Notes: generated from the letters alone by a model not told the origin. A stretch of DNA of 64,000 nucleotides from Lysobacteraceae bacterium (GCA_044340325.1 JBIITV010000003.1:2734-66733); one strand, 5' to 3'; positions 1 to 18,080 are shown, counted from the stretch's first letter. Made by a program: numbers and translations.

Positions 1-1733
1 TCGTAGCCGATGCGGCCACCGGTATTCAGGTTCTTCTGGAAGTAGGGATCGTCCACCGGACCGATTTTCAACCGCAGCCGGGTGCCTGCATCGAGTCTGC
101 GGCAGGTCCACCAGAAACGATTGAAGCGCCAAGGTAGTATCACGCCCGCTTCGGTTGACGATTCGCGAGCGGCATCGGCGCGGAACCGGGCGCGCATCGC
201 ATCGCCGCCAAGCCACACCATCCGGTTCTCCGCATCGATCGCATGCAGGTCGACGCGCACGTCGGTGTCGGGCACGTTGATGGCGATGCGGGCATCGAAA
301 ACGATTGTTCCGCAGATCGTCCGCGCACGCGTCAATGGTTCGCTGTGGAAAAACAACTGCGGCCGGCGCAGCGCGTCGTCATCGCGAACGTAGCTGGCAT
401 CATCGACCGGGCGCAGCGCCCAGTCCGCAGGCTGGGTGTCGCGACGCGGGTCGAAAACGAAACTTGACGGCGGTTCTGCATCGGCCGGCGCATCCGTCAA
501 TCGGCCGCTGGCGAAAGGCGTGTCGGCCGTTGCGCCGTCGGCGCGTGCGAACAGGTTCCAACGATGCGGTGCCACAGATGCCAGGTCCGGCGCCGAGCGC
601 CATTCCTCCGCGCCCATCACGTAGTAATTCACACGGTCCGCCAGCGCCTGCGGCTTCGGCTTGCCGCGCAGCACATGATCGAACCATTCGATCTGCAGGC
701 GATCCAGATCGAGCACCGCACGTGGATCGAATGTGAGGCCGCTGACGTTGTCGCGCGGATAGCGGGTGCCGGCATGGTCCCATGGCCCGATCAGCAGCAT
801 GTGCCGTCGCGCCGCATCTGTCGCAGCGTGGCGCTGGTGCTCGTCGTAATACCGCATTGAGCCCTCCTGATCGCCGTCGAAATAGCCGGTGATGGTCAGG
901 ATCGGCGGGGTCATCCGCGCGTACTGGGCGGGCGTGGGATTGACCCTGCGCCAGTAGCCGTCGTTACCCGCGTTGTCCAGCCAGCGCGTGAAATGCCCCT
1001 GCGGTGCGCCGCTGATTTCCGCGAGTCGGCTGAATGTGGTCTCGCCGCGGTGGATGCGCGCGAATTTCCCGCGCCAATAGGCTTCGTCGCCGAACAGTTG
1101 CGCATTCGAAGCGCGACCATCGACGAACGCCAGCCACTGCGCCATGTAGCTGTACGGAATGCCGCGCGGCGAGGGATAGTCCCAGCCGGGATAGACCGAT
1201 GCGGTCGGTACCGCAGCCTTCAGCGCCGGTGGCGATTCCGCGAGCGCCTGCCACTGCGCCATGCCGCGATAGGAGCCGCCCATGGTGACGACGCGGCCAT
1301 CGGACCACGGCTGGCGCGCCAGCCACGCGATCGCGTCTGCGCCGTCCGGGCCGGTGCCTTCCAGCGGAACGAAGGTACCCTCCGACGTGCCACGACCGCG
1401 GCGGTCCAGGCTGACGTAGACGTAATCGGCGGCCACGAACTTGCGCGCCCGCACTTGGGTTTCATCGGAAAGATAGGGCGTGTGCTGCAACACGACAGGA
1501 AAGCGCCCGGCTTTCGACGGCCGCCAGATGCGTGCGGACAGCGTGATGCCATCGCGCATCGGCACCCGCGCATCGAGCAGCATGTCCATCGCCAGCGGCA
1601 CCGTTTGCGGCGGTGTCGCTGATGAACCGGATTCGGTGGTCTGTGCGAACGCAACGCCGGACAGGGCTGCGAGCGTGCATGCCATCGTCAGGCTCGAGAG
1701 GGTGGGTTGGTTCGCAGAAGTCGGTGTCGGCAT
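1..1733 (-). CDS. CocE/NonD family serine hydrolase (X-Pro dipeptidyl-peptidase-like), secreted; runs off the left edge
   Basis: Manual translation from ATG at 1733: MPTPTSANQPTLSSLTMACTLAALSGVAFAQ...VPMRDGITLSARIWRP...FPVVLQHTPY...LDRRGRGTSEG...WSDGRVVTMGGSYRG (G-x-S-Y-x-G nucleophile motif). Not in the ORF track, presumably because its stop lies outside the window. Confidence 0.88.
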   Translation of the reverse strand, partial: MPTPTSANQPTLSSLTMACTLAALSGVAFAQTTESGSSATPPQTVPLAMDMLLDARVPMRDGITLSARIWRPSKAGRFPVVLQHTPYLSDETQVRARKFVAADYVYVSLDRRGRGTSEGTFVPLEGTGPDGADAIAWLARQPWSDGRVVTMGGSYRGMAQWQALAESPPALKAAVPTASVYPGWDYPSPRGIPYSYMAQWLAFVDGRASNAQLFGDEAYWRGKFARIHRGETTFSRLAEISGAPQGHFTRWLDNAGNDGYWRRVNPTPAQYARMTPPILTITGYFDGDQEGSMRYYDEHQRHAATDAARRHMLLIGPWDHAGTRYPRDNVSGLTFDPRAVLDLDRLQIEWFDHVLRGKPKPQALADRVNYYVMGAEEWRSAPDLASVAPHRWNLFARADGATADTPFASGRLTDAPADAEPPSSFVFDPRRDTQPADWALRPVDDASYVRDDDALRRPQLFFHSEPLTRARTICGTIVFDARIAINVPDTDVRVDLHAIDAENRMVWLGGDAMRARFRADAARESSTEAGVILPWRFNRFWWTCRRLDAGTRLRLKIGPVDDPYFQKNLNTGGRIGY

Positions 1734-2568
1734 GGCGGGTGCTCCTGTCAGAGGTGTGTTCTGCAAGCGACGCGCTCGAATTGCGTTGGTCGCGGCGATC
1801 AGTCCAATGTCTTCGGTCCAATGTCTTCGATTCTGCGCCGGTCGCTGCACCAGCGTCGCTGCCCTTGGCGTCGGCGAAACGGCGATTCGCTTCCATCCAG
1901 TTCGCCACCTGCCACCAGGCCGCGATGTAATCGGCGCGCTTGTTCTGGTGCTTCAGATAATAGGCGTGCTCCCAGACGTCCAGCGCCAGCAGCGGTGTGC
2001 CGCGTTCGGCGACGAGATCCATCAGCGGATTGTCCTGGTTGGGGGTCGTGGTGATCGCCAGCGAACCATCGTCGCGAAGAATCAGCCAGGCCCAGCCGGA
2101 GCCGAATACGCTCCGCGAATCGGCATCGAAGCGTTTCTGCATGTCTTCGACACTGCCGAAATCGCGTTCGATGCGCGCCTTGAGCGCGGCGCTCGGGGCG
2201 CCACCCTGGCCCGGCGGTGCCAGCAAGGTCCAGAACAGGCTGTGGTTGTAATGGCCCCCGCCGTTGTTGCGCACGGCGCTGTCGAAGGACGAGATCTCGC
2301 GTTGCAACTGCTCCAGCGACAACGCGTTCAGCTGCGGGAAATCCTTGGTCTTGGCATTGAGATTGTCGACGTAGGCGCGATGATGACGGCCATGGTGGAT
2401 CCGCATGGTTTCCGCATCGATCGCAGGTTCGAGCGCATCGACCGCATAGGGCAGTTCGGGCAGCGCGAACGGGGCGGATTCGGTCGCGTTCGTGGCGGAC
2501 AGGGCGCAGACGTACAGCGCAAGTATCAGCGCCAGCGAGCGCGATACACGTCGCAGCGAGGTGGGCAT
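1462..2568 (-). CDS. sodA: Mn-type superoxide dismutase with N-terminal signal peptide; the C-terminus reads through into the CocE gene
   Basis: HHGRHHRAYV, NNGGGHYNHSLFW (Gly-type, Mn), TPNQDNP (Gln-type, Mn), DVWEHAYY. Hydrophobic leader LALILALYVCALSA. GAGGA sits just upstream of the ATG at 2568. Confidence 0.9.
   Translation of the reverse strand: MPTSLRRVSRSLALILALYVCALSATNATESAPFALPELPYAVDALEPAIDAETMRIHHGRHHRAYVDNLNAKTKDFPQLNALSLEQLQREISSFDSAVRNNGGGHYNHSLFWTLLAPPGQGGAPSAALKARIERDFGSVEDMQKRFDADSRSVFGSGWAWLILRDDGSLAITTTPNQDNPLMDLVAERGTPLLALDVWEHAYYLKHQNKRADYIAAWWQVANWMEANRRFADAKGSDAGAATGAESKTLDRRHWTDRRDQRNSSASLAEHTSDRSTRHADTDFCEPTHPLEPDDGMHARSPVRRCVRTDHRIRFISDTAANGAAGDGHAARCAGADARWHHAVRTHLAAVESRALSCRVAAHALSFR
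1802..1829. repeat. Perfect 14-bp tandem duplication (GTCCAATGTCTTCG x2) at the SOD 3' end
   Basis: 1802-1815 and 1816-1829 are identical. With one copy the minus-strand frame reads ...ESKTLD-TGA (TGA at 1799-1801). Confidence 0.95.
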
Positions 2569-2577
2569 CGATTCGTA

Positions 2578-2651
2578 GATCCTCATGTGTCGATCCTCAT
2601 GATGTCGAGTGACTTGATGTGAAGTGACTTGATCTCAAGTGACATGATGCC
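2578..2651. repeat. Five degenerate 14-15 bp tandem units upstream of the SOD gene
   Basis: gatcctcatgtgtc / gatcctcatgatgtc / gagtgacttgatgtg / aagtgacttgatctc / aagtgacatgatgcc. Confidence 0.8.
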
Positions 2652-2701
2652 GAGTCTCAGGCACTGAACCGCATCGTGGCCCAGTCCCGTCCTGGCAGGC
2701 C

Positions 2702-4069
<1,368 letters not shown>

Positions 4070-4154
4070 GTGGGTGCGGTTCCGTTGCGTTCGCGTTGTG
4101 TGTGTTGTCAGGCTTGGATCGATGTTGAGGCTGCGGTGCCGGGATGCGTCCGGT

Positions 4155-5774
4155 TCAATTCGGCTGAAGACCGGCGCGTCCGTTTTCGATGGTGAAGCGG
4201 CCCAACGTCTCGATCTGCGCGTCACGGGCTTTCACCGTGTCCAGTGCGCGGATGGCCAGGTGGGCATCGCGGTCCAGGGTGAGCAGGCAATAGCCGCGCC
4301 GGTCGCTGCGCGCGAAATGGAAGTGCGGGTTGTTGCGCAGGGCGCGGTCGAAGTCGACCTGCGCCGCGCCCTGCGATGTGATCGAGGTGCCGCAGACTTC
4401 GCTGGCGATCGCCGGCGCGCGCGGATCCCACGGGTCGCGCTTCAAGTCGGCCAGTACCGTCGCGTGGATATCGCCGCCGACCACCAGTGGATTGGATGGC
4501 TTCAGACGCGCGATCGTGTCGTACAGCCGCTGTCGCGCGCGCGGGTAACCGTCCCAACCGTCCGTGCGCACCGGCCGCGCAGGGCCGGGGTCGTCGTCGC
4601 GTGCGCTCATCAGTGTCTGCTGCGCCATCACGTTCCAGCGGCTTCGGCTGGTGGCGAGGCCATCGTAGAGCCATCGCTCCTGAGCCATGCCCAGCAGCGA
4701 CGCCCGCGGGTCATCGATACCCGCGCATTCCGCGATCTCGACCGTCCTGCCGCCGCCGCCTTTCAGCGGATCCGGGCAGGCCTGCGATGTGCGGTACTGG
4801 CGCCCATCCAGCATGAAGATCCGTGCGGTGTCGCCCCAGTCGACGACGGTATGCAGGCGCATCCCGCCATCGACGCGCGGCCTCATCGTCGCTGGCAACG
4901 GCATGTGCTCGTAGTAGGCTTGATACGCCGCTGCGCGGCGCAGAAGAAAACGCGGGTCGAGGTATTCCGAACGCTCACCGGCCAGATCGTTGTCGACTTC
5001 GTGATCGTCCCACACCACCAGCCATGGCATTGCCGCGTGCGCGCGCTGCAACAGCGGATCGCGCTTGTACTGCGCGTGGCGGATCCGATAGTCCTCCAGC
5101 GCGATCGGCTCGGCATTGCTGTGTCGGCGCACCAGCTCGTCGCCCCATGAGCTTTCGTAGATATAGTCTCCGAGGAACACCATCAGATCCGGCGCGTCTT
5201 CGATCAGATGACGATACGCATGGTAGTAGCCCTGTTCGTAGTGCTGGCACGAACCGATCGCGAAGCGCAGCGGCGTCGCACCGCTGCCCGGCGCGGGGGC
5301 GGTCAAGGTGCGCCCGGTCGGGCTGATGTCGTCGCCGGCGATGAAGCGATACGCATATGTGCGCCCGGGGCGCAGCCCGCGCACATCCACATGCACGCTG
5401 TGCGCCAGTTCCGGCACGGCACGCTGCTGACCGGAAGCGACGATGCGCGAGAAGCTTTCGTCTTCGGCGACTTGCCAGGTCACCGTGACGATTTCGTCGC
5501 GGGCCATGCCGCCATCGGCTTGCAGCGGCAGCGGCGCGAGTCGCGTCCAAAGCGTAGCGCCGTCGGCAACTGGATAGCCGGAGGCGACGCCCAGCGTGAA
5601 CGGATCGCCGACGAAGCGCACGCGTGCGACTTGCTGCGCACGCAGCGACGACGGCAGCATCGACAGCGCCGCGAGCGACAGCGAGGCGTGCAGAAATCGA
5701 CGGCGGGCATGTGCCGGATCCCGACCGTCTTCCTGCCTGATCAAGGTGAGCGCGCGATGAAGCAAGTGTTTCAT
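4155..5774 (-). CDS. phoD: Alkaline phosphatase D family protein, Tat-exported
   Basis: RRRFLH Tat motif; [25 protein letters not shown] and GDIH motifs. Confidence 0.92.
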
Positions 5775-5783
5775 GGCGTTTGA

Positions 5784-6470
5784 TCAGCGCTCGACCGAAC
5801 GGCTTCTTGGCGCATGGATCAGCGACAGGAATTCGCGCCGTGTTGTCGGGTCGTCGCGAAACGCGCCGAGCAGATGACTCGTCACCATGGTCACACCCGG
5901 CTTGTGGACGCCCCGCGTGGTCATGCACTGGTGCGCCGCTTCGACGACGACCGCAACGCCCAGCGGTTTGAGTTCCTCGTGAATGATCTGTGCGATCTGA
6001 CCGGTCAGCGTTTCCTGGATCTGCATGCGTTTGGCGTAGACATCGACGACGCGCGCGAGCTTGGAAATGCCGACCACGCGTCCGGCGGGCAGATAACCGA
6101 TGTGGACTTTGCCCAGGATCGGAACAAGATGATGCTCGCAGTGGGTTTCCAACCGGATATCGCGCAGGACGATCATCTCGTCGTAGCCCGCGACTTCTTC
6201 GAAGGTCGTCCGCAGCAGCGCGGCGGGGTCTTCCCGATAGCCGGCGAAGAATTCTTCATAGGCACGCGCAACCCGGTCCGGTGTTCCAACCAAGCCTTCC
6301 CGCTCCGGGTCGTCGCCCGCCCATGCGATCAGTGTCCTGACCGCGCTTTCGGCTTCGGTACGGCTTGGCCTTGCCTGCCGCCGGGGCTCGGTGAGGTCGC
6401 TCGGCACGGCTGCGTTCTGGTCGGCGGACATGTCGTCGACAGCTGCAGGGCCGAATGCGTTCGAGGTCAT
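5784..6470 (-). CDS. folE: GTP cyclohydrolase I, type IA (Zn-dependent)
   Basis: [16 protein letters not shown] and HQCMTTRG zinc-ligand motifs, [13 protein letters not shown]. Start codon uncertain by about 13 codons. Confidence 0.95.
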
Positions 6471-6507
6471 TGGGGAGGGCCGGAGGCTGTGCTTGAAGAG
6501 GCATTAA

Positions 6508-6522
6508 TGTAATGTTATAACA
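6508..6522. promoter_or_regulatory. Zur-type operator between divergent operons
   Basis: TGTAATG-T-TATAACA matches the proteobacterial 7-1-7 Zur consensus (TGTTATDNHATAACA) and lies in an AT-rich intergenic patch. Flanking genes (COG0523, DUF1826, folE) are typical of zinc-limitation regulons. Confidence 0.8.
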
Positions 6523-6589
6523 TATGCATTGAGTCTGTAATCGTCCACCTGCCTCATGCCCTCCGGCACCGCTGATTTCAGAGCCCCGA

Positions 6590-6808
6590 ATGATCCCTGA
6601 CAGTTATCCCGCATGGCGGCAGTGCATCGAGATCGACTGCGGTATCCCGCTGACCGAGCGCTTCATTCGCGAACGGATCGTTGCGCTGCAAGATCTGCGC
6701 GATTTCCGCACCGAACAGTTCCTCCGCTGCTACGGGCAGGCGCATCTCGACCGTGTCCGTGCGTGGTTCGCACAGGCGTTGAGCGAGTTCACTGCTGGCA
6801 CAGCATGA
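6590..6808 (+). CDS. Small conserved hypothetical protein (72 aa)
   Basis: IPDSYPAWRQCIEIDCGIPLT...CYGQAHL. Its stop overlaps the next start (ATGA). It resembles a small protein I recall from zinc-limitation clusters (not verified). Confidence 0.7.
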   Translation: MIPDSYPAWRQCIEIDCGIPLTERFIRERIVALQDLRDFRTEQFLRCYGQAHLDRVRAWFAQALSEFTAGTA

Positions 6809-7473
6809 GCGTGCAGCCGCGAACGATGTTGCCAGCCGAAGCCTGCGTCGGCTCGCTGCCGGAGTCGCTGTTGCGCATCCGTGAGCCTCAGCGCCGTCTC
6901 GCGATCTGGGAGCGCCGCATTCCTGCCGGTATCGTCGCTTGGCTGGGCCGCCACTTCCGGCCGCAGGACGACAGCGGCGGTTGCTCGTTCTTGCCTTCGG
7001 CCAATCCGGGTATCGCACTGGATGCGCTACTGGATCAGATCCTTCTCGCCGATGGTCTTGAGCCGCAGTCCTGTACGCCGTTCCAGCAGTGGCGGCGAGA
7101 CCTCCTGGATCTGATCGCACTCGCCAAAGAGATCGCACCGCAGACGCCCAGACTGATGCTGCGGCTGCAGCGTCTGGAGAATGCCGGCTGCCCGCTGTTC
7201 CACGTCGACCAGGTGCCACTGCGATTGCTCTGCGTCTATGTCGGTGCCGGCACCGAATGGTTGCCCGAAGATGCTCTTGACCGCTCGCGGCTGGGAACGG
7301 GTACCAACGCATCCGTGCGCGATTGGGCTGCAGTGCAGTGCATCGGCACCGGCCATGTTGCGATCATCAAAGGCGATCGCTATCCGGGCAATGTTGGCCG
7401 CGGTCTGGTGCATCGTTCCCCGGAAGCCTCCGCCGCGCAGCCCCGGATACTGGCTGCGATCGATTTCGGTTGA
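6805..7473 (+). CDS. DUF1826 domain protein
   Basis: CPLFHVDQVPLRLLCVYVGAGTEWL and KGDRYP...GLVHRSP motifs; ATGA coupling to the upstream gene. Confidence 0.85.
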   Translation: MSVQPRTMLPAEACVGSLPESLLRIREPQRRLAIWERRIPAGIVAWLGRHFRPQDDSGGCSFLPSANPGIALDALLDQILLADGLEPQSCTPFQQWRRDLLDLIALAKEIAPQTPRLMLRLQRLENAGCPLFHVDQVPLRLLCVYVGAGTEWLPEDALDRSRLGTGTNASVRDWAAVQCIGTGHVAIIKGDRYPGNVGRGLVHRSPEASAAQPRILAAIDFG

Positions 7474-7677
7474 TGCGGGCAGAGGGGTTCACCCCATGCT
7501 GTGCTGTCGCGGGCGCGGCGATGGGCTCATGGCTGCTTCGGTCCATGACCGATGACCCGTCTCAGACGCGGCCCCGTGCAATAACATCCATCAGTCGTCA
7601 ATCATGCCGTCGATCACGTCGTCGCACTGCGGAGCTCCGCACGCTACGGCCACGGTCCATCTTCCGGGAGTCGTCAC

Positions 7678-10224
7678 GTGAGTCTTTCCGTTTTGCGCCG
7701 CCAGCGCACCCTCTCCTTGCGGGCGTGCATGGCTGCCCTGCTGACAGGGGCACTGCTGGCTTTGACGACCGTTTGCCTGCCGATGGCGGATGCTGCGGCA
7801 CAGACCCTGCGCCAGACCAAGGCGCCTTTCCATGACGCCTTCCGCCAGCTCGAAGGCGAAGACTGGCCAACGCCCACCGATTATCGCAACGCTGCAGGCG
7901 CACCGGGATATCGATACTGGCAGCAGAAAGTGGATTACGACATCCGCGCACGTCTGGATGAGTCTGCGAAAACCGTCGATGGCCAGGCGCGCATCACCTA
8001 TCGCAACCATTCGCCCGATCCATTGCCGTATCTATGGCTGTTGCTGGACCAGAACAACTACAAGCGCGATTCGCTCGCCGAGCTCACCCGCACGGTCAGC
8101 GGCGACGACATCGCCTTGAATGAAGTGCGCCGCGCCAAACGCTTTCAGGAGTGGGAAGGCGGTTTCGCCATCCGCGCAGTGCGCGATGCGTCGGGCCGCG
8201 CACTGACCTTCAGCGTGGTCGACAGTTTGATGCGGATCGAGTTGCCGCAGCCGGTGGCGGCCAACGGCGGCACTACCGAGTTCGAGATCGAATGGTCGTT
8301 TCCGATGGTCGAGAACAAAGTGATCGGTGGCCGCAGCGGCTATGAATGTTTCACCGCAAAGGGCGAGGACGGCAACTGCATTTTCCAGGGCGCGCAGTGG
8401 TTCCCACGGTTGGCGGTGTACTCCGACTACGAAGGCTGGCACAACAAGGCCTTTCTGGGATCCGGCGAATTCACCCTGGAGTTCGGCGACTACACCCTGG
8501 CCTTGACCGTCCCCGCAGATCACGTGGTCGCCAGTACCGGCGAGCTTCAAAACTCCGAACGGGTCTTGAACGCCGCGCAGCGCGAGCGCCTGCGGCGCGC
8601 ACGCGACGCGCGCGAGCCCGTCTATGTGGTCACCCCGGAAGAAGCCCTGGCTGCTGAAAAAACCAAGGTCGGCGGGGAAAAGACCTGGGTCTTCAAAGCC
8701 GACAATGTGCGCGATTTCGCCTGGTCGTCGTCGCGCAAATTCGTCTGGGATGCGCTGGGAGTACGTCAGAACTCCAGCGAGCAGCCGCTGGTCATGGCGA
8801 TGTCGTTCTATCCCAAGGAAGCCCGTCCGCTGTGGGATGGGTATTCGACCAAAGCGATCGCGCACACGCTCGACGTCTACTCGCGCTTCACGTTCCCGTA
8901 TCCGTACCCCACGGCGCAGTCGGTGAACGGCCCGGTCGGCGGCATGGAGTATCCGATGATCACCTTCAACGGCCCGCGCCCGGTGAAGGACAAGAAGACC
9001 GGCAACCTCACCTACACAGAGCGCGCGAAGTACGGTTTGATCACGGTCGTGATCCATGAGATCGGGCATATCTATTTTCCGATGATCGTCAATTCCGACG
9101 AACGCCAGTGGACCTGGATGGACGAAGGCCTCAACACCTTCTTGCAGTTCCAGGCCGAAAAACTCTGGGACGCGAAGTATCCGTCGCGTCGCGGCGAGCC
9201 CAAGGACATCGTCGAGTACATGGTTTCGAAGGATCAGGTCCCGTTGATGACGCAGTCCGATTCGCTGCTGCAGTTCGGCGCCAACAGCTACGCCAAGCCC
9301 GCCACTGCCCTGGTGGTGCTGCGCGAAACGGTGATGGGGCGCGAACGGTTCGACCGTGCCTTTCGCGAGTATTCGCAGCGTTGGTACATGAAACATCCAA
9401 CGCCCTACGATTTCTTCCGCACCATAGAAGAATCCTCCGGCATCGATCTGGACTGGTTCTGGCGCGGCTGGTTTTACTCCACCGATCACGTCGATATCAG
9501 CCTGGACAACGTCGTCCGCTGGCGGCTGGACAGCGGCCAGCCGAAGAAGGAATCGGACTGGCGGCGCGGACAGCGCGAACGGCAGCCTGAATCCCTGACC
9601 GCGCAGCGCAACGACGAAAAGACCGTTGTCCAGCGCGATCCCGCGACCCGGGACTTCTACAACGCCACCGACGAGTTCACGGTTACCGCCGAAGCCGAGC
9701 GCAAGGCTGCCACCGCACAGGAAGCGTTGACGCCGGAAGAACGCGAGGCGCGGGCGGTCATCGACAGCTTCTACCGTTTCACCTTCGCCAATCGCGGCGG
9801 TCTGGTGATGCCGGTGATTCTCAAGCTGGATTTCAGCGACGGTTCCGAGCGGATCTGGCGGATTCCGGCTGAAATCTGGCGGCGCAACACACAGCAGGTC
9901 ACCTGGGAACTGGTCACGGCCAAGACCGTTGTCCGCGCCGAAATCGACCCGCTGTGGGAGACCGCCGACGCCGATCGCGATAACAATGTGTACAGCCGCG
10001 AGATCGAGCCGCGCACGTTGAAGATCCGCAAGCCGGAAGAGATCGAGAACCGGATGAAGGATGCCGATCTCAAGGTCGAACCCGGTTCGCTGACGCCGTT
10101 GTCGGCACCGAAAGCCGACGCCAAGCCCAAGAGCAAACCGGCCGATTCGGAAAACAAACCTGTTGAGTCCAATGCCCCTGCAGCCCCTGCGCCTGCCGCT
10201 ATGACCGAAACCGCAACGCCATGA
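7678..10224 (+). CDS. M1 family metallopeptidase, secreted
   Basis: GGMEYP exopeptidase motif, VIHEIGH (HExxH), WMDEG third ligand, signal peptide. Start may be the ATG at 7726. Confidence 0.92.
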   Translation: MSLSVLRRQRTLSLRACMAALLTGALLALTTVCLPMADAAAQTLRQTKAPFHDAFRQLEGEDWPTPTDYRNAAGAPGYRYWQQKVDYDIRARLDESAKTVDGQARITYRNHSPDPLPYLWLLLDQNNYKRDSLAELTRTVSGDDIALNEVRRAKRFQEWEGGFAIRAVRDASGRALTFSVVDSLMRIELPQPVAANGGTTEFEIEWSFPMVENKVIGGRSGYECFTAKGEDGNCIFQGAQWFPRLAVYSDYEGWHNKAFLGSGEFTLEFGDYTLALTVPADHVVASTGELQNSERVLNAAQRERLRRARDAREPVYVVTPEEALAAEKTKVGGEKTWVFKADNVRDFAWSSSRKFVWDALGVRQNSSEQPLVMAMSFYPKEARPLWDGYSTKAIAHTLDVYSRFTFPYPYPTAQSVNGPVGGMEYPMITFNGPRPVKDKKTGNLTYTERAKYGLITVVIHEIGHIYFPMIVNSDERQWTWMDEGLNTFLQFQAEKLWDAKYPSRRGEPKDIVEYMVSKDQVPLMTQSDSLLQFGANSYAKPATALVVLRETVMGRERFDRAFREYSQRWYMKHPTPYDFFRTIEESSGIDLDWFWRGWFYSTDHVDISLDNVVRWRLDSGQPKKESDWRRGQRERQPESLTAQRNDEKTVVQRDPATRDFYNATDEFTVTAEAERKAATAQEALTPEEREARAVIDSFYRFTFANRGGLVMPVILKLDFSDGSERIWRIPAEIWRRNTQQVTWELVTAKTVVRAEIDPLWETADADRDNNVYSREIEPRTLKIRKPEEIENRMKDADLKVEPGSLTPLSAPKADAKPKSKPADSENKPVESNAPAAPAPAAMTETATP

Positions 10225-10757
10225 ATGCCATGCGCGCGTCGATCGCAAGAACCACGGCCATTGTTCTCATGCGCTGTATCGTTGTGCTGTCGCTGCTGGT
10301 GGTCAGTGGCATCGGGTTCGCGCATCGCGGCAACGACATGCTGAGCGTGATCGAGATCGACGCGGCGACCGGACATCTGCTGGTCACCCATCACTTCGCC
10401 GCTCACGATCTGGAACCAGCGCTGCTGCGGATCGCATCGGACGTGCAGCCCAGCCTGGATGACCCCGCTGCACAGGCGGCGTTGATCCGCTACACCGGCA
10501 CGAACTTCTCGCTGTCCGATGGCGGCGAACGAGCCGTGCCGCTGCGCTTCGAAGCGATCAAGCTCTCGGGCGACGATGTGCGGTTGGTCTATCGCGGCAC
10601 CCTGCCGCTGCCGGCGAAGACGCTGCAGATCGATTCGCGGCTGTTGAACGGTCTGTATCCGGACGAAACCCATCAGATCAACATCCGCCGTGCCGGCATC
10701 ACCCGATCGGTGCTGCTGCGCGGCGGGTCTGAAACGCAGCAGGTGCTGTTCGAATAG
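10221..10757 (+). CDS. DUF6702-like secreted protein
   Basis: Signal peptide ending GFA-H, then HHFAAHDLE and HQINI. Coupled to the M1 gene by an ATGA overlap. Confidence 0.7.
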   Translation: MNAMRASIARTTAIVLMRCIVVLSLLVVSGIGFAHRGNDMLSVIEIDAATGHLLVTHHFAAHDLEPALLRIASDVQPSLDDPAAQAALIRYTGTNFSLSDGGERAVPLRFEAIKLSGDDVRLVYRGTLPLPAKTLQIDSRLLNGLYPDETHQINIRRAGITRSVLLRGGSETQQVLFE

Positions 10758-12369: not shown

Positions 12370-12384
12370 AGTTATGTTATAACG
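12370..12384. promoter_or_regulatory. Second Zur-type operator, upstream of the TonB-dependent receptor
   Basis: AGTTATG-T-TATAACG, same 7-1-7 pattern as 6508-6522, in an AT-rich patch. Confidence 0.72.
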
Positions 12385-12500
12385 TACTAGTTGACATGCA
12401 AGTATGCCGATCCCGCTTTCCAAGCCCGCCGAAGGAATGCCATCGGCGGTGCCGACCGATTCGATCGCGCAATTCATTCCGTTTCCTGCAAGAGGTCTTG

Positions 12501-14528
12501 ATGCAAAGGGTATTCACGAAATCAGCGTTGAGCATCTGTGTGTTGCTGGTGCCGGCCTCGGTGGTTGCCGCACAGTCCATCGCGCCGGATGATGCGAGCG
12601 CCGAACGCTTGGACACCGTCGTGGTGATCGGCGAGCGCGGCAAGCGCCAGGCCGATGCCGGCCTTGCCGGCTCGCTCGACACCATCGCCCGCAGCGCGCT
12701 GGAGTACGAGCATGTCGACGACACCAGCGAGCTGTTCAACAAGCTGCCGGGCGTGTATCTCTCGCGTTTCAACCAGGGACTGATCAATTCCGATCTATCG
12801 ATCCGTGGGTTTTCCGGTGATGGCGAAACGCCGCATGCCAAGTTGTTGATCGATGGCATTCCATCCAATCTGCACAATGGCTTCAGCGAGATGGATCAAT
12901 TGTTCCCGATCGGTATCGAGTCGATCGCGGTCTTCAAAGGCACCAGCGACCCGGGCGTCGGCTTGTTCAACATTGCCGGCAATTACCGCATCGAAACGCG
13001 CAGCGACACAGCCGCGCGCGAACTCGAGGTTTCGGTCGGCAGTTTCGATACCCGTGAACTGCAGGGCTATGCGGGTTTTGAGCACGGCGCACTGAAGCAC
13101 AGCTATTTCGCAGGCTATCGCGAGGCCGGCGGCTATCGCGACCATACCGATCTGGAGAAGTACGCGCTGTCGGGTCGGTGGTCCTATGCGCTGGGCGATC
13201 GGACAGCGCTGGCGTTGATCGCACGCGCCGCCGGTTATGAAGGCGATGCCCCGGGATATTTGACCAAGGCGGAATCCAGACGCCTACCGCAGTCGTCTGC
13301 TGAGTATGCCAATCAGGATGGTGGAGACAAACGCACGCGCCACGCCAGTCTGCATTTCGATCATCGATTCGGCGACACCATCGCGCTATCGGCGAAAGCC
13401 TATCTGCAGACCTTCGAGCGCGAGCGCTGGGTGCGCTTTTCCGCCGCCTCCGCGCTTCAGAACCGATACGACGATCAGGATCATCGCGGTGTGATCGCTA
13501 CGTTATCGTGGGACATCGACACGCGCTGGCGGCTGGATGGCGGTGTCGATGCCGAGTTCCAGGACATCATCGAGCAGCGGTTCGGAACGATCGGCCAGGT
13601 GCGGGTACGCGATCCTGCGAACGTGTTGCGCAATCGCGCCTATACATTCGACACGAGCGGTGCGTTCGCACGCATCGGTATGCGCGAAGAAGGCCGATAC
13701 GGCTGGAACGTGGCGATACGCGCGGACCGGATCGATGGCGATTACACGCAGTTCAACGCCGCAGGCGTACCGTCGACGCGCGAAATCTACCGCTTCGGCA
13801 CCATTCTGCAGCCAAAGTTCAACGGATTCGTCAATCTTGGCGAAGACCTGCAGCTGTTCGCAAACGCTGGGCGTTCCTTCCAGCATCCGTTCGGTGCGGA
13901 TGCCTATACTGCAGGCGATCGCGGTGCGCGCGATGTCTCCGTCAACGACGGTTGGGAGCTTGGCGCGAAATGGCGCTCGACGGATGCGCTGGAGCTGCGT
14001 CTGTCGTACTGGGAGCAGAAGGCGAAGGACGAATTCGTGGTGGTCGACGGCGTCGTGCAGAATGTCGGCCGCACCGCGCGCGATGGTCTGGACTTCGCAT
14101 TCAACTGGAGTGCCGGCGAGCGCTGGTACGTGTGGGGCAACTTGACTACGGTCGACAGCCGTATCGAGCGCCCGGCGCAGAACCGCGAAGCCTATATCGG
14201 CAATGCATTGCGCGGCGTGCCGACGCGGACCGGCTCGCTGGGTGTGGACTTCGATCCTACAGATGCGATCACCGCACGCGTGCATGTGGACCATCAGGGC
14301 GACTATCACGTCAACGAAGCCAATCTGGGTGGCCGTTTCGGTGACTACACACTCACCCATGCGAGTCTCGACTGGCGTCTCGGCTGGGGGACATTGGGAT
14401 TTCAGGTCCAAAATCTGTTCGATCGCTATTACGAATATGTGTTCGACTTCAGCGAGAACGGCACTGGAACCATCCATTCGCCGGGAGATGGTCGCGCGTT
14501 CGGCGTGTCGTTGAAGCTGGAGTTCTGA
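12501..14528 (+). CDS. TonB-dependent receptor, probably zinc-limitation induced
   Basis: Signal peptide, DTVVVIG TonB-box-like segment, plug (LSIRGF...LLIDGIP), terminal NLFDRYY...SLKLEF with C-terminal Phe. Confidence 0.93.
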   Translation: MQRVFTKSALSICVLLVPASVVAAQSIAPDDASAERLDTVVVIGERGKRQADAGLAGSLDTIARSALEYEHVDDTSELFNKLPGVYLSRFNQGLINSDLSIRGFSGDGETPHAKLLIDGIPSNLHNGFSEMDQLFPIGIESIAVFKGTSDPGVGLFNIAGNYRIETRSDTAARELEVSVGSFDTRELQGYAGFEHGALKHSYFAGYREAGGYRDHTDLEKYALSGRWSYALGDRTALALIARAAGYEGDAPGYLTKAESRRLPQSSAEYANQDGGDKRTRHASLHFDHRFGDTIALSAKAYLQTFERERWVRFSAASALQNRYDDQDHRGVIATLSWDIDTRWRLDGGVDAEFQDIIEQRFGTIGQVRVRDPANVLRNRAYTFDTSGAFARIGMREEGRYGWNVAIRADRIDGDYTQFNAAGVPSTREIYRFGTILQPKFNGFVNLGEDLQLFANAGRSFQHPFGADAYTAGDRGARDVSVNDGWELGAKWRSTDALELRLSYWEQKAKDEFVVVDGVVQNVGRTARDGLDFAFNWSAGERWYVWGNLTTVDSRIERPAQNREAYIGNALRGVPTRTGSLGVDFDPTDAITARVHVDHQGDYHVNEANLGGRFGDYTLTHASLDWRLGWGTLGFQVQNLFDRYYEYVFDFSENGTGTIHSPGDGRAFGVSLKLEF

Positions 14529-14530
14529 TC

Positions 14531-15268
14531 ATGCGCGCAGCGGATTCGAGGCCCATGGTCGTGGTCGAACGGTTGCATTTCGGCTACAGCGATACGATGG
14601 TGCTGGACGGGATCGATCTGCAGGTGATGCCCGGCGAGGTGTTTGCCATTCTCGGCGGCAACGGCGCCGGAAAATCCACGTTGCTGAATTTGATGCTGGG
14701 CCTGCTGCGCCCCAACGACGGCCGGATCTTGATCGGCGGCCGTGATCCGGCAGTCGATCCCGAAGGCGTTCGCCGCGTCCTCGCCTATGTGCCCGAAACG
14801 GCTGCGGTGTACCCGCACCTCAGCGGCATCGAGAACCTGCGTTACTTTCTCGACATCGCCGGTGTCCGTAAAGCCAGGGGCGACATCGTGGCTGCGCTGG
14901 AGACGGTGGGCCTGCAGTCCCAGGCATGGGACCGACGCGCCAGCGATTACTCCAAGGGCATGCGTCAGAAGCTGGTGTTGGCCTTGGCACTTCTGCGCGA
15001 CGTGCAACTGCTGCTGATGGATGAGCCGGGCTCTGGTCTGGATCCCGACGCGGATGCTCAGCTCGCGTCGCTGATCGCGAAAATGCGCGACGAAGGCCGC
15101 AGTGTGGTGCTGGTGAGTCACGATCTGCAAGCGGTGTCTGCGCTGGCGGATCGCTATGTGTTTCTCGCTGCGGGCGGGATCGCGCGTCAGGGGCGGGATC
15201 TGTCCGAGGTCGGCCGCGATCTTGCCGCGCTGCATGCGCTGTATGCGCGGCATGTGGTGCGCGAGTGA
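14531..15268 (+). CDS. ABC transporter ATP-binding protein (ABC-2/exporter class)
   Basis: GGNGAGKST Walker A, YSKGMRQK signature, LLLMDEP Walker B, VSHD. Confidence 0.95.
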   Translation: MRAADSRPMVVVERLHFGYSDTMVLDGIDLQVMPGEVFAILGGNGAGKSTLLNLMLGLLRPNDGRILIGGRDPAVDPEGVRRVLAYVPETAAVYPHLSGIENLRYFLDIAGVRKARGDIVAALETVGLQSQAWDRRASDYSKGMRQKLVLALALLRDVQLLLMDEPGSGLDPDADAQLASLIAKMRDEGRSVVLVSHDLQAVSALADRYVFLAAGGIARQGRDLSEVGRDLAALHALYARHVVRE

Positions 15269-16695
15269 GCATGTCCATGCTCGGACAGGCGCGAATCATC
15301 GCTGCTGCGGAATGCCGACGGCTGTTGCGGGATCGGTCTGTCGTGTATGCATTCGCCATCGTCCTGCTGCTCGGCGTCGTTTCGTTGGTCGTCACATATC
15401 AGCGTCACGCGCAGCTGCAGGCGCAACAAACCGCGTACGCGGCCATTGCCGACACGCAGTGGCAGGCGCAGCCGGACCGTCATCCGCATCGCGTTGTGCA
15501 TTCCGGCGATTTCGTATTCAAGCCGTCGTCGCTTCTGGCATCGTTGGACTGGGGTGTGGAATCGCACACCGGTCGATCGCTGTTTCTGGAAGGGCATCGG
15601 CAGAACACCGCCAACTTCAGTGAAACCGGACAGGCAGGCGCATTGCTGCGTTTCGGTCAACTCACACCTGCGATGGTGATCCTGCAGCTGTTGCCGCTGG
15701 TGCTGATATTCGCAGGGTTCGGCGCAGTCGCCGGCGAACGGCAATCAGGCGTGCTGCGCACCTTGATTGTCTCCGGTGCGCGTGGGCAGTCTGTGCTGGT
15801 CGGAAAGTACTTCGCGCTGCTGCTGCCCGCCGTTGCCGCTCTGTCGCCGCTGCCGGTCGCAATGATGTGGATGGGCGTCTCCGATACCGATCAACTGTTG
15901 CGCGCTGCGTTGCTGTGCGCGACCTATGCGGTGTATCTGGCGTTGTGGTGCGCGATGATTACGGCGATATCGTCGCTGTCGCGAAGTGCATATGCTGCGT
16001 TACTGACATTGCTGTGTCTATGGATGGTGTGGTGTGTGGCGATGCCGCGCGCTGGTCCGACCTTCGCTGCACTGTCGCATCCGGCGCCGAGCCGCGCGGT
16101 CATGGACATGCGCGCCGAGCAGGCGCTGAAGAAGATCGGCGACAGCCACAATCCGGACGATCCGCATTTCGCGGCTTTCCGTGCGCGGACGTTGGCCCGC
16201 TACGGTGTCGAGAGGATCGAGGATCTGCCGGTGAACTACGGCGGATTGCTGATGATCGAGGGCGAACGTCTTACCAGCGAGGTCTATGCACGCGAAGTCG
16301 AAGCGCTGAACGCGCGACATGCAGAACAGAATCGTCTGGTGGATGCATGGGCATGGTTCGCGCCAGCGATGGCGGCCGGTGTGGCTTCACGGTCGCTTGC
16401 GGGCACCGACGCAGATCATTACCGTCATTTCGTGGCAGCAGCCGAGCGCCGGCGCTATGCGCTGGTGCAATCGCTGAACCATCTTCACGCCGAGAAAATC
16501 GCCTACCGCAACGATCGCGAACAGCGCCTGCACGCCGGTCACTGGGATAAGGTGCCGCGCGAGGAATACGCCGCGCCAGGTCTCGGATTCGCCGCGGCAA
16601 GGCTATGGCCGGCATTGTTGGCGCTGCTGCTGTGGTCCGCGCTATCGGGTGCGCTGTTGCTCTGGTGCGGGCAGCGTCTGGCGCGCAGCGCATGA
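15265..16695 (+). CDS. ABC-2-type permease, DUF3526-like
   Basis: Multiple TM helices, AGERQSGVLRTL motif, periplasmic QPDRHPHRVVHSG and SHNPDDPHF. Confidence 0.85.
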   Translation: MSMSMLGQARIIAAAECRRLLRDRSVVYAFAIVLLLGVVSLVVTYQRHAQLQAQQTAYAAIADTQWQAQPDRHPHRVVHSGDFVFKPSSLLASLDWGVESHTGRSLFLEGHRQNTANFSETGQAGALLRFGQLTPAMVILQLLPLVLIFAGFGAVAGERQSGVLRTLIVSGARGQSVLVGKYFALLLPAVAALSPLPVAMMWMGVSDTDQLLRAALLCATYAVYLALWCAMITAISSLSRSAYAALLTLLCLWMVWCVAMPRAGPTFAALSHPAPSRAVMDMRAEQALKKIGDSHNPDDPHFAAFRARTLARYGVERIEDLPVNYGGLLMIEGERLTSEVYAREVEALNARHAEQNRLVDAWAWFAPAMAAGVASRSLAGTDADHYRHFVAAAERRRYALVQSLNHLHAEKIAYRNDREQRLHAGHWDKVPREEYAAPGLGFAAARLWPALLALLLWSALSGALLLWCGQRLARSA

Positions 16696-18080
16696 TTCGG
16701 TCGCCTTCGATGCAGGAGATGATGATCCACGAGCTTCGTCTGCTGTTGCGCTCGCAATGGGTACGGGCGGCATTGCTGGCGACTGCCGTCGCTGTGGCGG
16801 TTTCGCTGTGGCTGGGTTGGGCGGTCGTGGCGAAACGTCAGCTCGATGTCGAGCAGGCGTCTGCGCTGCAGTCCGCACAGCATGACGATTATCTGAGCCG
16901 CTATCCGCAGGGTTTGCCGGATGCAGGCGATGTGGCCTACTACACATTCCACGTGGTTTCCGATTCGCCAGGCCCATTGGCGTGGTTGTCGCTGGGCGAT
17001 CGCGATACGCGACCTGCGGTGCAGCGGATACGGATGCTGGCCCTGCAGTCGCAGATCTACGACGGTGAGGCCAACAATCCGGAGCAGTCCGCTGCGGGCA
17101 CATTCGATTTTGGGTTCGCGGTGGTATTCCTGCTGCCGCTGCTGTGCATCTGCCTGTGCCACGACTTGGCTACCCAGGACCGCGAACATGGGCGCGACAA
17201 GCTGCTGTCGTCGCTGATCGCGTCCACGCGCAGCTACTGGTCGCGGCGGATCGCGGCGCGCTATCTGTTGGCGTGCGCTGCCGCTCTGTTGCCGTTGTTG
17301 CTGTTTTGCGCAGCGACCGGCAATTGGCCGCCGGCGCTGTGGCTGGTTATCCTGGCTGTCGCGCTGTATGCCGCCGTGTGGACGGCGGCCTGCGCATGGA
17401 TCAGTCTGCGGTGGCGGACATCCACATCGATGGCCAATGCAATGGCCATGCTGGCGCTGTGGGTCGCGACCACCATGGCGCTGCCCGCGCTGGCGGGTTC
17501 GCTGGTCGCGCTGTGGTCGCCGATGCCGTCGGGCAGCGAAATCGCGCTGGCGCACCGAAAACTTTTGAACGATGCGTGGGACCTGCCGAAGGAAGCCACA
17601 TTCGAGGCGTTTTTCGACGCGCATCCGGAGTGGCGCGGGACGCCGCCGGTGACCGGAAGATTTCATTGGAAGTGGTACTACGCCTTCCATCATGTGGCCG
17701 ACCTGCACGTCGAACCGAAAGTAGCTGCGGCCGATGCGGCGATGCGCGCCCGCGCCCGTTCCGGCGCGCGTATCGGCCTGCTGTTACCGCCGGTGGCGAT
17801 GCAGCGACTGATGGATGGTTTCGCCGACAACGGCATGGAGCGCCTGGCCGATCAGCGCGCGGCGGTGCGCGCATTCCATGATCGGCTGCGCTTGCATTTC
17901 TATCCGTTCCTGTTCGAAGAGCGACCATTCACTGCGGAGGATTTTGCGGCGATGCCCGTTCCGCATGCCGCGCCGGATCGGATCCGGCACGCACCTTTGT
18001 CGTGGATCGGGCTGATGCTGTTGTTGTCGCTCGTGCTGATCGCACTGTCGCGACAAATCTCGCGGCGATCATTCGCGTGA
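16692..18080 (+). CDS. Second ABC-2-type permease, DUF3526-like
   Basis: FDFGFAVVFLLPLL, DREHGRDKLL, FHWKWYYAFHH; ATGA coupling to the first permease. Confidence 0.85.
   Translation: MIRSPSMQEMMIHELRLLLRSQWVRAALLATAVAVAVSLWLGWAVVAKRQLDVEQASALQSAQHDDYLSRYPQGLPDAGDVAYYTFHVVSDSPGPLAWLSLGDRDTRPAVQRIRMLALQSQIYDGEANNPEQSAAGTFDFGFAVVFLLPLLCICLCHDLATQDREHGRDKLLSSLIASTRSYWSRRIAARYLLACAAALLPLLLFCAATGNWPPALWLVILAVALYAAVWTAACAWISLRWRTSTSMANAMAMLALWVATTMALPALAGSLVALWSPMPSGSEIALAHRKLLNDAWDLPKEATFEAFFDAHPEWRGTPPVTGRFHWKWYYAFHHVADLHVEPKVAAADAAMRARARSGARIGLLLPPVAMQRLMDGFADNGMERLADQRAAVRAFHDRLRLHFYPFLFEERPFTAEDFAAMPVPHAAPDRIRHAPLSWIGLMLLLSLVLIALSRQISRRSFA

Follow-up and report, generated by a model that had tools for sequence, protein, structure and literature searches.

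A Predicted Zur Operator between a COG0523 Chaperone Operon with Exported-Enzyme Genes and a DUF1826 Gene String in a Lysobacteraceae Bacterium

We analyzed a stretch of 64,000 nucleotides of DNA from a Lysobacteraceae bacterium (GCA_044340325.1 JBIITV010000003.1:2734-66733), called the window hereafter, whose positions serve as coordinates throughout. Near its left end, a predicted operator for the zinc-dependent repressor Zur lies between two divergent gene strings, folE-phoD-COG0523-sod-S15 leftward and hyp72-DUF1826-M1-DUF6702 rightward. The gene calls rest on Pfam, NCBIfam, and translations, all of which agree with the gene identities given in an earlier note on this DNA; leader peptides were called by eye and metals were assigned by homology. 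The remainder of the 4.75-Mb genome, whose contigs are labeled C, was also searched. Comparisons covered 43 genomes of the genus for PhoD, the exported superoxide dismutase (SOD), and SodC, 25 sampled genus genomes for DUF1826, and, for PhoD outside the genus, the 80 best homologs (45-61% identity) in a species-representative genome collection.

On the minus strand, the leftward string encodes a type IA GTP cyclohydrolase I (folE, 5784-6470), a PhoD alkaline phosphatase/phosphodiesterase with a twin-arginine translocation (Tat) leader (4155-5774), a ZigA-like COG0523 GTPase (2702-4069), an Fe/Mn SOD of the Mn type with a Sec-type leader (1462-2586), and, as the last gene, an S15 serine hydrolase of the CocE/NonD family (1-1733). 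On the plus strand, the rightward string encodes a 72-amino-acid protein (hyp72, 6590-6808), a DUF1826 protein (6805-7473), an exported M1-family zinc metallopeptidase (7678-10224), and a DUF6702 protein (10221-10757). The leftward genes are tightly packed, with gaps of 9 nt between folE and phoD, 85 nt between phoD and COG0523, and 115 nt between COG0523 and sod, and the sod frame overlaps the S15 gene. A scan for consensus promoters and terminators revealed neither promoter-like nor terminator-like sites in the leftward gaps. The leftward operon appears to end outside the window, at a hairpin 3′ of the S15 gene that is common to a convergent amtB-glnK pair.

The operator (6508-6527) has the extended form TGTAATGTTATAACATATGC and contains a perfect 12-bp palindrome, ATGTTATAACAT, at 6512-6523. 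The palindrome is upstream of both flanking genes, at a distance of 41 bp from the folE ATG (6470, minus strand) and 66 bp from the hyp72 ATG (6590). At this base composition, a perfect ATGTTATAACAT is expected by chance in 0.017 copies per 4.75-Mb genome. Only three sites with one mismatch or fewer exist genome-wide, namely those at 6512 and 12374 in the window and one on contig C72, and a search of the 64-kb window that allowed up to two mismatches yielded two sites versus 0.30 expected. A position-weight matrix (PWM) scan built from nine orthologous boxes adds one weaker site, at a TonB receptor gene on contig C86. The same 12-mer is present at orthologous or related promoters in eight other lineages (L084, L108/L109, L110/L111, L087, L092, L093, L102, and L136). 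The proposal in the earlier note that a Zur-type box sits between two divergent gene sets is therefore borne out by a site that is rare by chance and conserved in relatives, and the comparison supports the view that one conserved operator separates two divergent, tightly packed gene strings. The palindrome holds the -10-like hexamer TATAAC on both strands, so that a repressor bound there would mask the likely -10 element of each divergent promoter. On the plus strand, the sequence TTGAAG (6493-6498) is located 17 nt upstream of TATAAC, and a stricter consensus scan called no promoter here.

The COG0523 protein matches PF02492 (1e-51) and PF07683 (CobW_C) and carries the P-loop GFLGAGKTT and the CXCC motif GCICC. 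Its score against the ZigA model NF038288 is 580.9 bits, below the cutoff of 600, and an insertion divides the match into two parts; by this model it is a ZigA-like protein that is not filed as a ZigA equivalog. Orthologs across the order are 64-76% identical (66-67% in genomes of the same family), many with the same box, and, judged by this conservation, the COG0523 gene is the anchor of the leftward operon. In contrast, phoD, sod, S15, and folE are absent from the 20 COG0523-ortholog neighborhoods examined across the order. In Xanthomonas campestris 8004, the COG0523 gene XC0267 has an AT-rich box that is footprinted by Zur, and a zur mutant shows 15-fold derepression of the gene (PMC2490734). 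By family membership and by the 66-67% identity seen in same-family genomes, XC0267 is the counterpart of the window gene. Other X. campestris Zur targets include XC3788, a ZnuC-like ATP-binding cassette (ABC) ATPase that is likewise a direct target in this strain without ZnuA and ZnuB, and XC2471, which is YciA/FolE2-like (PMC2490734).

Immediately across the operator, hyp72 is a conserved open reading frame (ORF) with no Pfam or NCBIfam match. Its orthologs, which are 43-88% identical and adjoin COG0523 genes across the order, align with invariant residues Cys12, Cys17, and His52. The hyp72 stop codon overlaps the DUF1826 start codon as ATGA, and the two genes are translationally coupled. 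DUF1826 itself (PF08856, 6e-42) has invariant H133-x-D135, H203-R-S-P, C129, and C143 in an eight-sequence alignment. An AlphaFold model of the protein (predicted local distance difference test score of 87.7) was matched by Foldseek to Fe(II)/2-oxoglutarate dioxygenases with E values from 3e-7 to 1e-5 and template modeling scores of about 0.5, and the Foldseek probability was 1.00 for many 2-oxoglutarate oxygenases. From this model, DUF1826 is predicted to adopt the double-stranded beta-helix fold of Fe(II)/2-oxoglutarate dioxygenases, with an HxD...H triad. The hyp72-DUF1826 pair accompanies the Zur-boxed COG0523 gene across the order, and DUF1826 is found in 3 of the 25 sampled genus genomes. 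In Francisella novicida, a DUF1826 gene is Zur-regulated (PMC5786701). Because of the orthologous boxes, the XC0267 footprint, and the Francisella DUF1826 regulation, the hyp72-DUF1826/COG0523 divergon corresponds to a known core unit, and its predicted control by Zur is well supported.

The earlier note counted COG0523, DUF1826, and folE-type genes among the staples of Zur regulons. This is correct for the COG0523 and DUF1826 genes, as the Xanthomonas and Francisella examples indicate, but the folE gene here is of type IA rather than the FolE2/IB type. FolE matches PF01227 (9e-73) and does not have the PF02649 (GCHY-1) fold, and its zinc-ligand motifs CEHH and HQCMTTRG (Cys/His/Cys) are intact when aligned to 4UQF, as they are in all four cluster copies compared (the window, L084, L108, and L110). 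It is a second copy, 58% identical to a housekeeping FolE IA encoded on contig C186, and in four lineages a type IA folE is the first gene 3′ of the box. The isoform usually regulated by Zur is the zinc-independent FolE2, or GTP cyclohydrolase IB. This genome also encodes a FolE2 (PF02649; C159:38304-39176), which follows ubiG-like housekeeping genes and is preceded by 400 nt of GC-rich sequence. No site above the PWM threshold was found anywhere on contig C159, which rules out FolE2 as the Zur-controlled isoform here. By its sequence, then, the isoform with the Zur box is FolE IA of the zinc type, which is the reverse of the usual arrangement.

PhoD has both the PhoD_N and PhoD domains (PF16655 and PF09423, the latter at 3.7e-97) and a twin-arginine leader, RRRF. 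It aligns with Bacillus subtilis PhoD (2YEQ) at 3e-114, with the SCQ, GDYIYE, WDDHEV, and GDxHA blocks of the Fe/Ca site conserved, and it falls below the cutoff of the Bacillus-type NCBIfam equivalog (456 versus 1000). Homology thus agrees with the earlier designation of PhoD as an exported enzyme that uses Fe and Ca instead of zinc. The protein is carried by 4 of the 43 genus genomes, namely the window genome and congeners G021 (locus L084), G005, and G334 (locus L136). The phoD gene is located 3′ of a Zur-type box in the order folE-phoD-COG0523 in the window, G021, and the metagenomic locus L108, the last with an esterase gene between folE and phoD. It is the first gene 3′ of a box-like palindrome in the order phoD-COG0523-sod in G005, and it lies 3′ of a perfect box in the order ABC-DUF3526-esterase-phoD-S15 in G334. 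In four lineages, phoD is directly upstream of COG0523. Moreover, the 5′ junction of phoD measures 9 nt in the window and is a 4-nt overlap in G334, in both cases too tight to accommodate a separate promoter.

Elsewhere, the 80 best PhoD homologs have no folE, COG0523, SOD, S15, or DUF1826 neighbors of the cluster type, and the 1.5 kb upstream of each homolog is devoid of a Zur-like box (0/80). The Zur link is therefore not a general property of PhoD, and we discarded that possibility. The sole locus among the 80 with any cluster-like neighbor is in an Obscuribacteraceae metagenome-assembled genome (L043, 10085-13594), where an S15-family gene (25% identity) lies about 1 kb downstream of the PhoD homolog on the same strand. 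The zinc-enzyme counterparts, whose presence the earlier note had left to be checked, are both encoded in the genome: two proteins of the PhoA family on contigs C130 and C52, and SodC on contig C137.

The exported SOD (PF00081, PF02777) scores 226 bits against the MnSOD model versus 165 against the FeSOD model. An alignment of eight SOD sequences shows the Mn-type motifs GGGH and NQD and a conserved hydrophobic leader, which is 39 residues long in the window protein. The secreted Mn-SOD proposed in the earlier note is consistent with these residues and with the Sec leader, but the frame is abnormally long, with 374 amino acids versus 235-260 in relatives, and overlaps the start of the S15 gene by about 270 nt. 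A tandem 14-nt repeat at the 3′ end of the gene (1801-1828, minus strand; GAAGACATTGGACC / GAAGACATTGGACT), with copies at 1815-1828 and 1801-1814, places the TGA at 1799-1801 out of frame, and the ORF consequently reaches position 1462. A 92% identical relative, at L133, has both 14-nt copies and yet an in-frame TGA in the second, ending at 260 amino acids, which weakens the idea that an ancestral stop codon was lost through a recent, private duplication. The population is represented in samples JGI 3300059473, JGI 3300042312, and SRR27419349, and the 374-amino-acid form recurs in three independent samples; it is therefore real in the population rather than an assembly slip.

This exported SOD was found in 2 of the 43 genus genomes, the window genome and G005; in G021 the contig stops inside the COG0523 gene. 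SodC is encoded in 37 of the 43, and the window genome also encodes a cytoplasmic SOD. Because SodC is nearly universal in the genus, the exported Mn-SOD is an add-on rather than the sole enzyme. COG0523 and sod are adjacent in four lineages. More distant orthologs of the exported SOD (L112/L113 and L115/L116; 65-67% identity) lie in strings with the order TonB-dependent receptor, M28, SOD, M3, ABC, DUF3526 or after a TonB-dependent receptor and PepSY_TM pair, and these arrangements hint at a general tie between exported Mn-SOD and TonB-dependent metal uptake.

The S15 protein (PF02129, 3.6e-43; TIGR00976, 254.7 bits) is 608 amino acids long at full length, with its stop codon 94 nt beyond the left edge of the window, and its closest solved structure is cocaine esterase (1e-36). 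The gene has AGGAG 8 nt ahead of its ATG (1733), the protein carries its own export leader, and the gene follows sod in L108 as well. Domain assignments and leaders therefore support the export of PhoD, SOD, and the S15 hydrolase as three proteins without a need for zinc.

Comparison across relatives separates a core from a changeable cargo. In the Xanthomonadales loci L087, L092, L093, and L102, the box is flanked by hyp72(-DUF1826) and COG0523 only. The congener G021 has DUF1826 and hyp72 on one side of the box and folE, phoD, and COG0523 on the other. Metagenomic locus L108/L109 carries DUF6702, M1, DUF1826, and a hyp gene on one side and folE, an esterase gene, phoD, COG0523, sod, and S15 on the other, and is flanked by the same amtB-glnK pair as the window. 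In L110/L111, two DUF3526 genes, an ABC gene, a TonB-dependent receptor gene, and DUF1826 lie opposite folE, COG0523, and sod. A perfect box in G334 heads a single-strand series of ABC ATPase, two DUF3526, PF00756 esterase, PhoD, and S15 genes, whose junctions comprise three 4-nt overlaps and two longer ORF overlaps. The gene 3′ of the Zur-boxed COG0523 elsewhere encodes an exported M28 (L086) or M3 (L087, L093) peptidase or a DUF5916 protein (L090, L092). The Tat leader of the PF00756 esterase in L108 (5858-8543) is almost identical to that of the window PhoD, which suggests that insertion of the esterase gene was accompanied by duplication of the leader. PhoD, SOD, and S15 have been re-associated repeatedly with Zur boxes, and the linkage is not confined to this strain but recurs in congeners and metagenomic relatives. 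As for the remark in the earlier note that this is not a described unit, the core of hyp72-DUF1826, box, and COG0523 is of a known kind and the exported cargo is new.

The far end of the rightward string is less firmly tied to the box. The M1 peptidase (PF01433, 2.5e-13) keeps HEIGH-X18-E (HEXXH-X18-E) and GGMEYP and is an intact gluzincin, and the DUF6702 protein (PF20420, 3e-16) has an N-terminal hydrophobic anchor or leader. The M1 gene starts 204 nt past DUF1826, and its stop codon overlaps the DUF6702 start codon (ATGA). Among 16 loci examined in other genomes, 11 have DUF6702 directly 3′ of M1, and M1 orthologs with 50-56% identity in other families of the order are nearly always box-free, which marks M1-DUF6702, by gene order, as a widespread and usually independent two-gene module. 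M1 also lies 3′ of DUF1826 in L108. Because of the 204-nt gap and the usual box-free independence, its co-transcription from the box at 6512 is uncertain. Thus, the zinc peptidase module that had been placed under the Zur box does contain an intact zinc peptidase, but its shared control with the box is doubtful. In another genome (L125; G164:C1:3428500-3443500), a weak COG0523-like match (24% identity across 194 residues) lies ahead of M1-DUF6702, and two near-identical boxes, GATATGTTGTATCAT, at 6368 and 9815 flank the COG0523-like/M1-DUF6702 stretch. These may be sites of another regulator or divergent Zur sites.

Additional Zur-type sites in the genome are associated with transport. The second box in the window, ATGTTATAACGT (12374-12385), heads genes for a TonB-dependent receptor, an ABC ATPase, and two DUF3526 permeases that extend from about 12.4 to 18.1 kb (12374-18080), and this ATPase is of the type of XC3788, the direct Zur target in X. 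campestris. A one-mismatch box, GATGTCATAACATTG (C72:843-862), lies ahead of an OprO/P-like porin gene. Two Fur-family genes are present. The copy on contig C86, which has two CxxC pairs, is by inspection the candidate zur gene; it follows gltX and adjoins a TonB receptor gene with a half-box, GAGAATGTTATAATGTTCCA (C86:4900-7774). A weak Zur-like site on contig C95 was dropped because it falls in unrelated AT-rich sequence 2.7 kb from an S15 paralog, which itself belongs to an operon of the formaldehyde-detoxification type.

Taken together, we consider it somewhat probable that the locus is a Zur-repressed island that combines a metal chaperone and its probable client FolE IA with exported, zinc-independent back-ups for PhoA and SodC. 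Zinc-loaded Zur would bind the 6512-6523 palindrome, covering the TATAAC hexamers of both divergent promoters, and both arms would be transcribed when zinc falls. In this scheme, the Xanthomonadales core has hyp72-DUF1826 facing the ZigA-type COG0523 GTPase. Within one small subclade of the genus, the COG0523 operon would have gained the second, zinc-requiring copy of FolE IA, which most likely acts as client or dosage partner of the COG0523 chaperone by analogy with ZagA and FolE of B. subtilis. The subclade would also have gained the cargo of Tat-exported, Fe/Ca-dependent PhoD, Sec-exported Mn-SOD, and the S15 serine hydrolase, joined by a PF00756 esterase in relatives. Of these, PhoD and Mn-SOD most likely cover for PhoA and SodC when zinc runs short in the periplasm. 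A more specific proposal, which we hold tentatively as something short of probable, is that these genes form a Zur-controlled "envelope metal-swap" set, in which Fe/Ca-PhoD substitutes for Zn-PhoA and Mn-SOD for Cu/Zn-SodC, and that this set, answering to Zur instead of to phosphate or oxidative stress, is mobile between two Zur-controlled modules of Xanthomonadaceae, the COG0523 operon and the TonB/ABC-DUF3526 importer.

Several observations weigh against this explanation. The earlier note had pictured an exchange of zinc-dependent exported enzymes for zinc-free ones, and homology agrees for PhoD, Mn-SOD, and S15. However, FolE is a zinc-dependent type IA enzyme with all of its ligands kept, for which a zinc-free reading fails, and M1 is a zinc peptidase, so the island is not uniformly zinc-free. 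Exported zinc peptidases of the M3 and M28 families also occupy the same slot in sister lineages. The esterase-PhoD-S15 trio behind the ABC/DUF3526 transporter in G334 fits zinc acquisition as well as zinc sparing, and zinc control of PhoD without visible phosphate control is unusual. The palindrome ahead of phoD in G005 is degenerate (GAAATGTTACTTTATAACAGTAAC), and neither a ATGTTATAACAT-type box nor a Fur-box match was found in the distant SOD loci L112-L116. The SOD tail of about 125 amino acids, which looks out of frame, may impair the SOD and interfere with S15 translation, and it weakens the claim of a SOD benefit for this particular strain. Finally, all four island-bearing genomes are fragmented assemblies of 269-930 contigs.

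The most serious competing explanation, although we judge it unlikely, is that the exported hydrolases (PhoD, the PF00756 esterase, S15, and the M1, M3, and M28 peptidases of this and sister lineages) free extracellular or periplasmic zinc from organic phosphate esters, esters, and peptides for Zur-controlled uptake through TonB/ABC-DUF3526 systems, with Mn-SOD shielding the envelope. The G334 esterase-PhoD-S15 genes lie directly behind a Zur-boxed ABC-DUF3526 transporter with 4-nt overlaps, a TonB-dependent receptor-ABC-DUF3526 cassette follows DUF1826 in the same divergon in L110, and the SOD ortholog of L112 is embedded in the order TonB-dependent receptor, M28, SOD, M3, ABC, DUF3526. Every cargo protein has an export signal, and no other explanation also makes room for the zinc peptidases and the gene order of G334. 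Set against these arrangements are the absence of a Zur box from L112-L116, the lack of an obvious part for SOD in metal release, and the fact that zinc peptidases themselves require zinc. Literature searches also gave no precedent for such a mechanism.

Two further explanations seem less likely than zinc release as the main rival to the proposed island of chaperone and back-up enzymes. Perhaps the clustering reflects the logistics of metallation, such that the COG0523 GTPase serves the zinc enzyme FolE IA and possibly Tat-PhoD. The known chaperone-client pair of ZagA and FolE (bioRxiv 10.1101/594382) offers a parallel, and in four lineages each, a folE IA with intact zinc ligands comes first after the box and phoD lies directly upstream of COG0523. 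The Tat leader likewise implies that PhoD folds and is loaded with its cofactor before export. Folding and cofactor loading precede export in the Tat pathway, but SOD, S15, and M1 are exported by Sec-type leaders and could not be loaded by a cytoplasmic GTPase. Furthermore, the Fe and Ca of PhoD are outside known COG0523 handling, and we know of no COG0523 protein that handles these metals. With most COG0523 orthologs of the order lacking folE or phoD neighbors, and phoD in G334 having no COG0523 gene nearby, we regard this account as improbable. We place even less weight on the view that phoD, sod, S15, and M1-DUF6702 are passengers that were rearranged into a Zur locus and retain their own promoters, responding for example to PhoB or to an oxidative-stress regulator, in which case their linkage would have no bearing on zinc. 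The island is patchy (4/43 genomes) and mosaic between lineages, M1-DUF6702 is autonomous elsewhere, the gaps of 115 and 204 nt could hold promoters, the window SOD frame looks damaged, and Zur linkage occurs in 0/80 of the closest PhoD homologs elsewhere. Nevertheless, the association of phoD with a Zur-type box has arisen in three gene orders, with the 9-nt spacing or 4-nt overlap leaving no promoter room, and in G005 phoD comes first after the box-like palindrome; in addition, the scan gave no promoter-like or terminator-like sites in the leftward gaps.

The usual description of a Zur regulon lists uptake systems together with a COG0523 chaperone and zinc-free paralogs in the cytoplasm. C- ribosomal proteins, FolE2, and DksA2 are examples of such zinc-sparing replacement. 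The island proposed here has several features in common with the Zur-regulated COG0523 subfamily 1, including YciC/ZagA of B. subtilis, ZigA of Acinetobacter baumannii, and XC0267 (Haas et al. 2009, PMC2770081; PMC2490734), namely a Zur box before a CXCC GTPase, an adjoining DUF1826 gene, and metalloenzyme paralogs. It differs in having Tat-PhoD, Mn-SOD with a signal peptide, S15 (with an esterase in relatives), and FolE of type IA instead of IB. PhoD, exported Mn-SOD, S15, and FolE IA are not among the cluster partners named in the examined passages of the survey (PMC2770081). The tie between a COG0523 GTPase and a zinc-dependent FolE IA under zinc limitation is likewise seen with ZagA and FolE in B. 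subtilis (bioRxiv 10.1101/594382), and Cupriavidus metallidurans likewise has several FolE isoforms, FolE_IA and IB, in one genome (PMC10882993). In these two species, however, type IB, which is metal-promiscuous, is the isoform induced through Zur, whereas in the present genome type IA has the box and the type IB gene on contig C159 is box-free.

The earlier note suggested that this operon would extend zinc sparing from the cytoplasm to the envelope. Zur-controlled envelope back-ups have precedents in ShyB of Vibrio cholerae (PMC6381278) and ZrlA of A. baumannii (PMC7812711), which are likewise exported or periplasmic enzymes induced by zinc starvation that sustain envelope function upon failure of zinc enzymes. 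ShyB and ZrlA are cell-wall peptidases that still bind zinc, whereas the candidates in the window are Fe/Ca-PhoD, Mn-SOD, and metal-free serine hydrolases, with PhoA and SodC as the proposed targets of substitution. Novelty therefore lies in the enzymes and their wiring, not in the concept of an envelope back-up. Marine microbes exhibit a trade-off between PhoA and PhoX/PhoD, with a zinc-free alkaline phosphatase used where zinc is limiting. That trade-off is usually framed as phosphate-regulated or ecological, whereas the phosphatase gene in the window appears to be wired to a Zur-type operator and is packed too closely to have a separate promoter. Our literature searches returned no description of a Zur-linked PhoD, nor of Zur, PhoD, and COG0523 together, and the papers in which Zur, PhoD, and zinc co-occur deal with unrelated matters. 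A paper on the two MnSODs of Stenotrophomonas maltophilia contains nothing on zinc or export, and a paper on the ZepA exoproteome does not mention phosphatases, SOD, or peptidases.

The locus also brings attention to DUF1826, a long-standing unknown of Zur regulons that is now predicted to be Fe(II)/2-oxoglutarate-oxygenase-like and to have a small conserved Cys/His partner. In addition, exported hydrolases, zinc peptidases among them, recur behind Zur boxes by TonB/ABC importers, which suggests that some Zur-controlled cargo mines zinc from organic complexes. If PhoD and the exported Mn-SOD prove to be zinc-responsive, metal sparing would reach phosphate scavenging and periplasmic oxidative defense. 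Zinc supply would then also be linked to how soil and freshwater Xanthomonadaceae acquire phosphorus.

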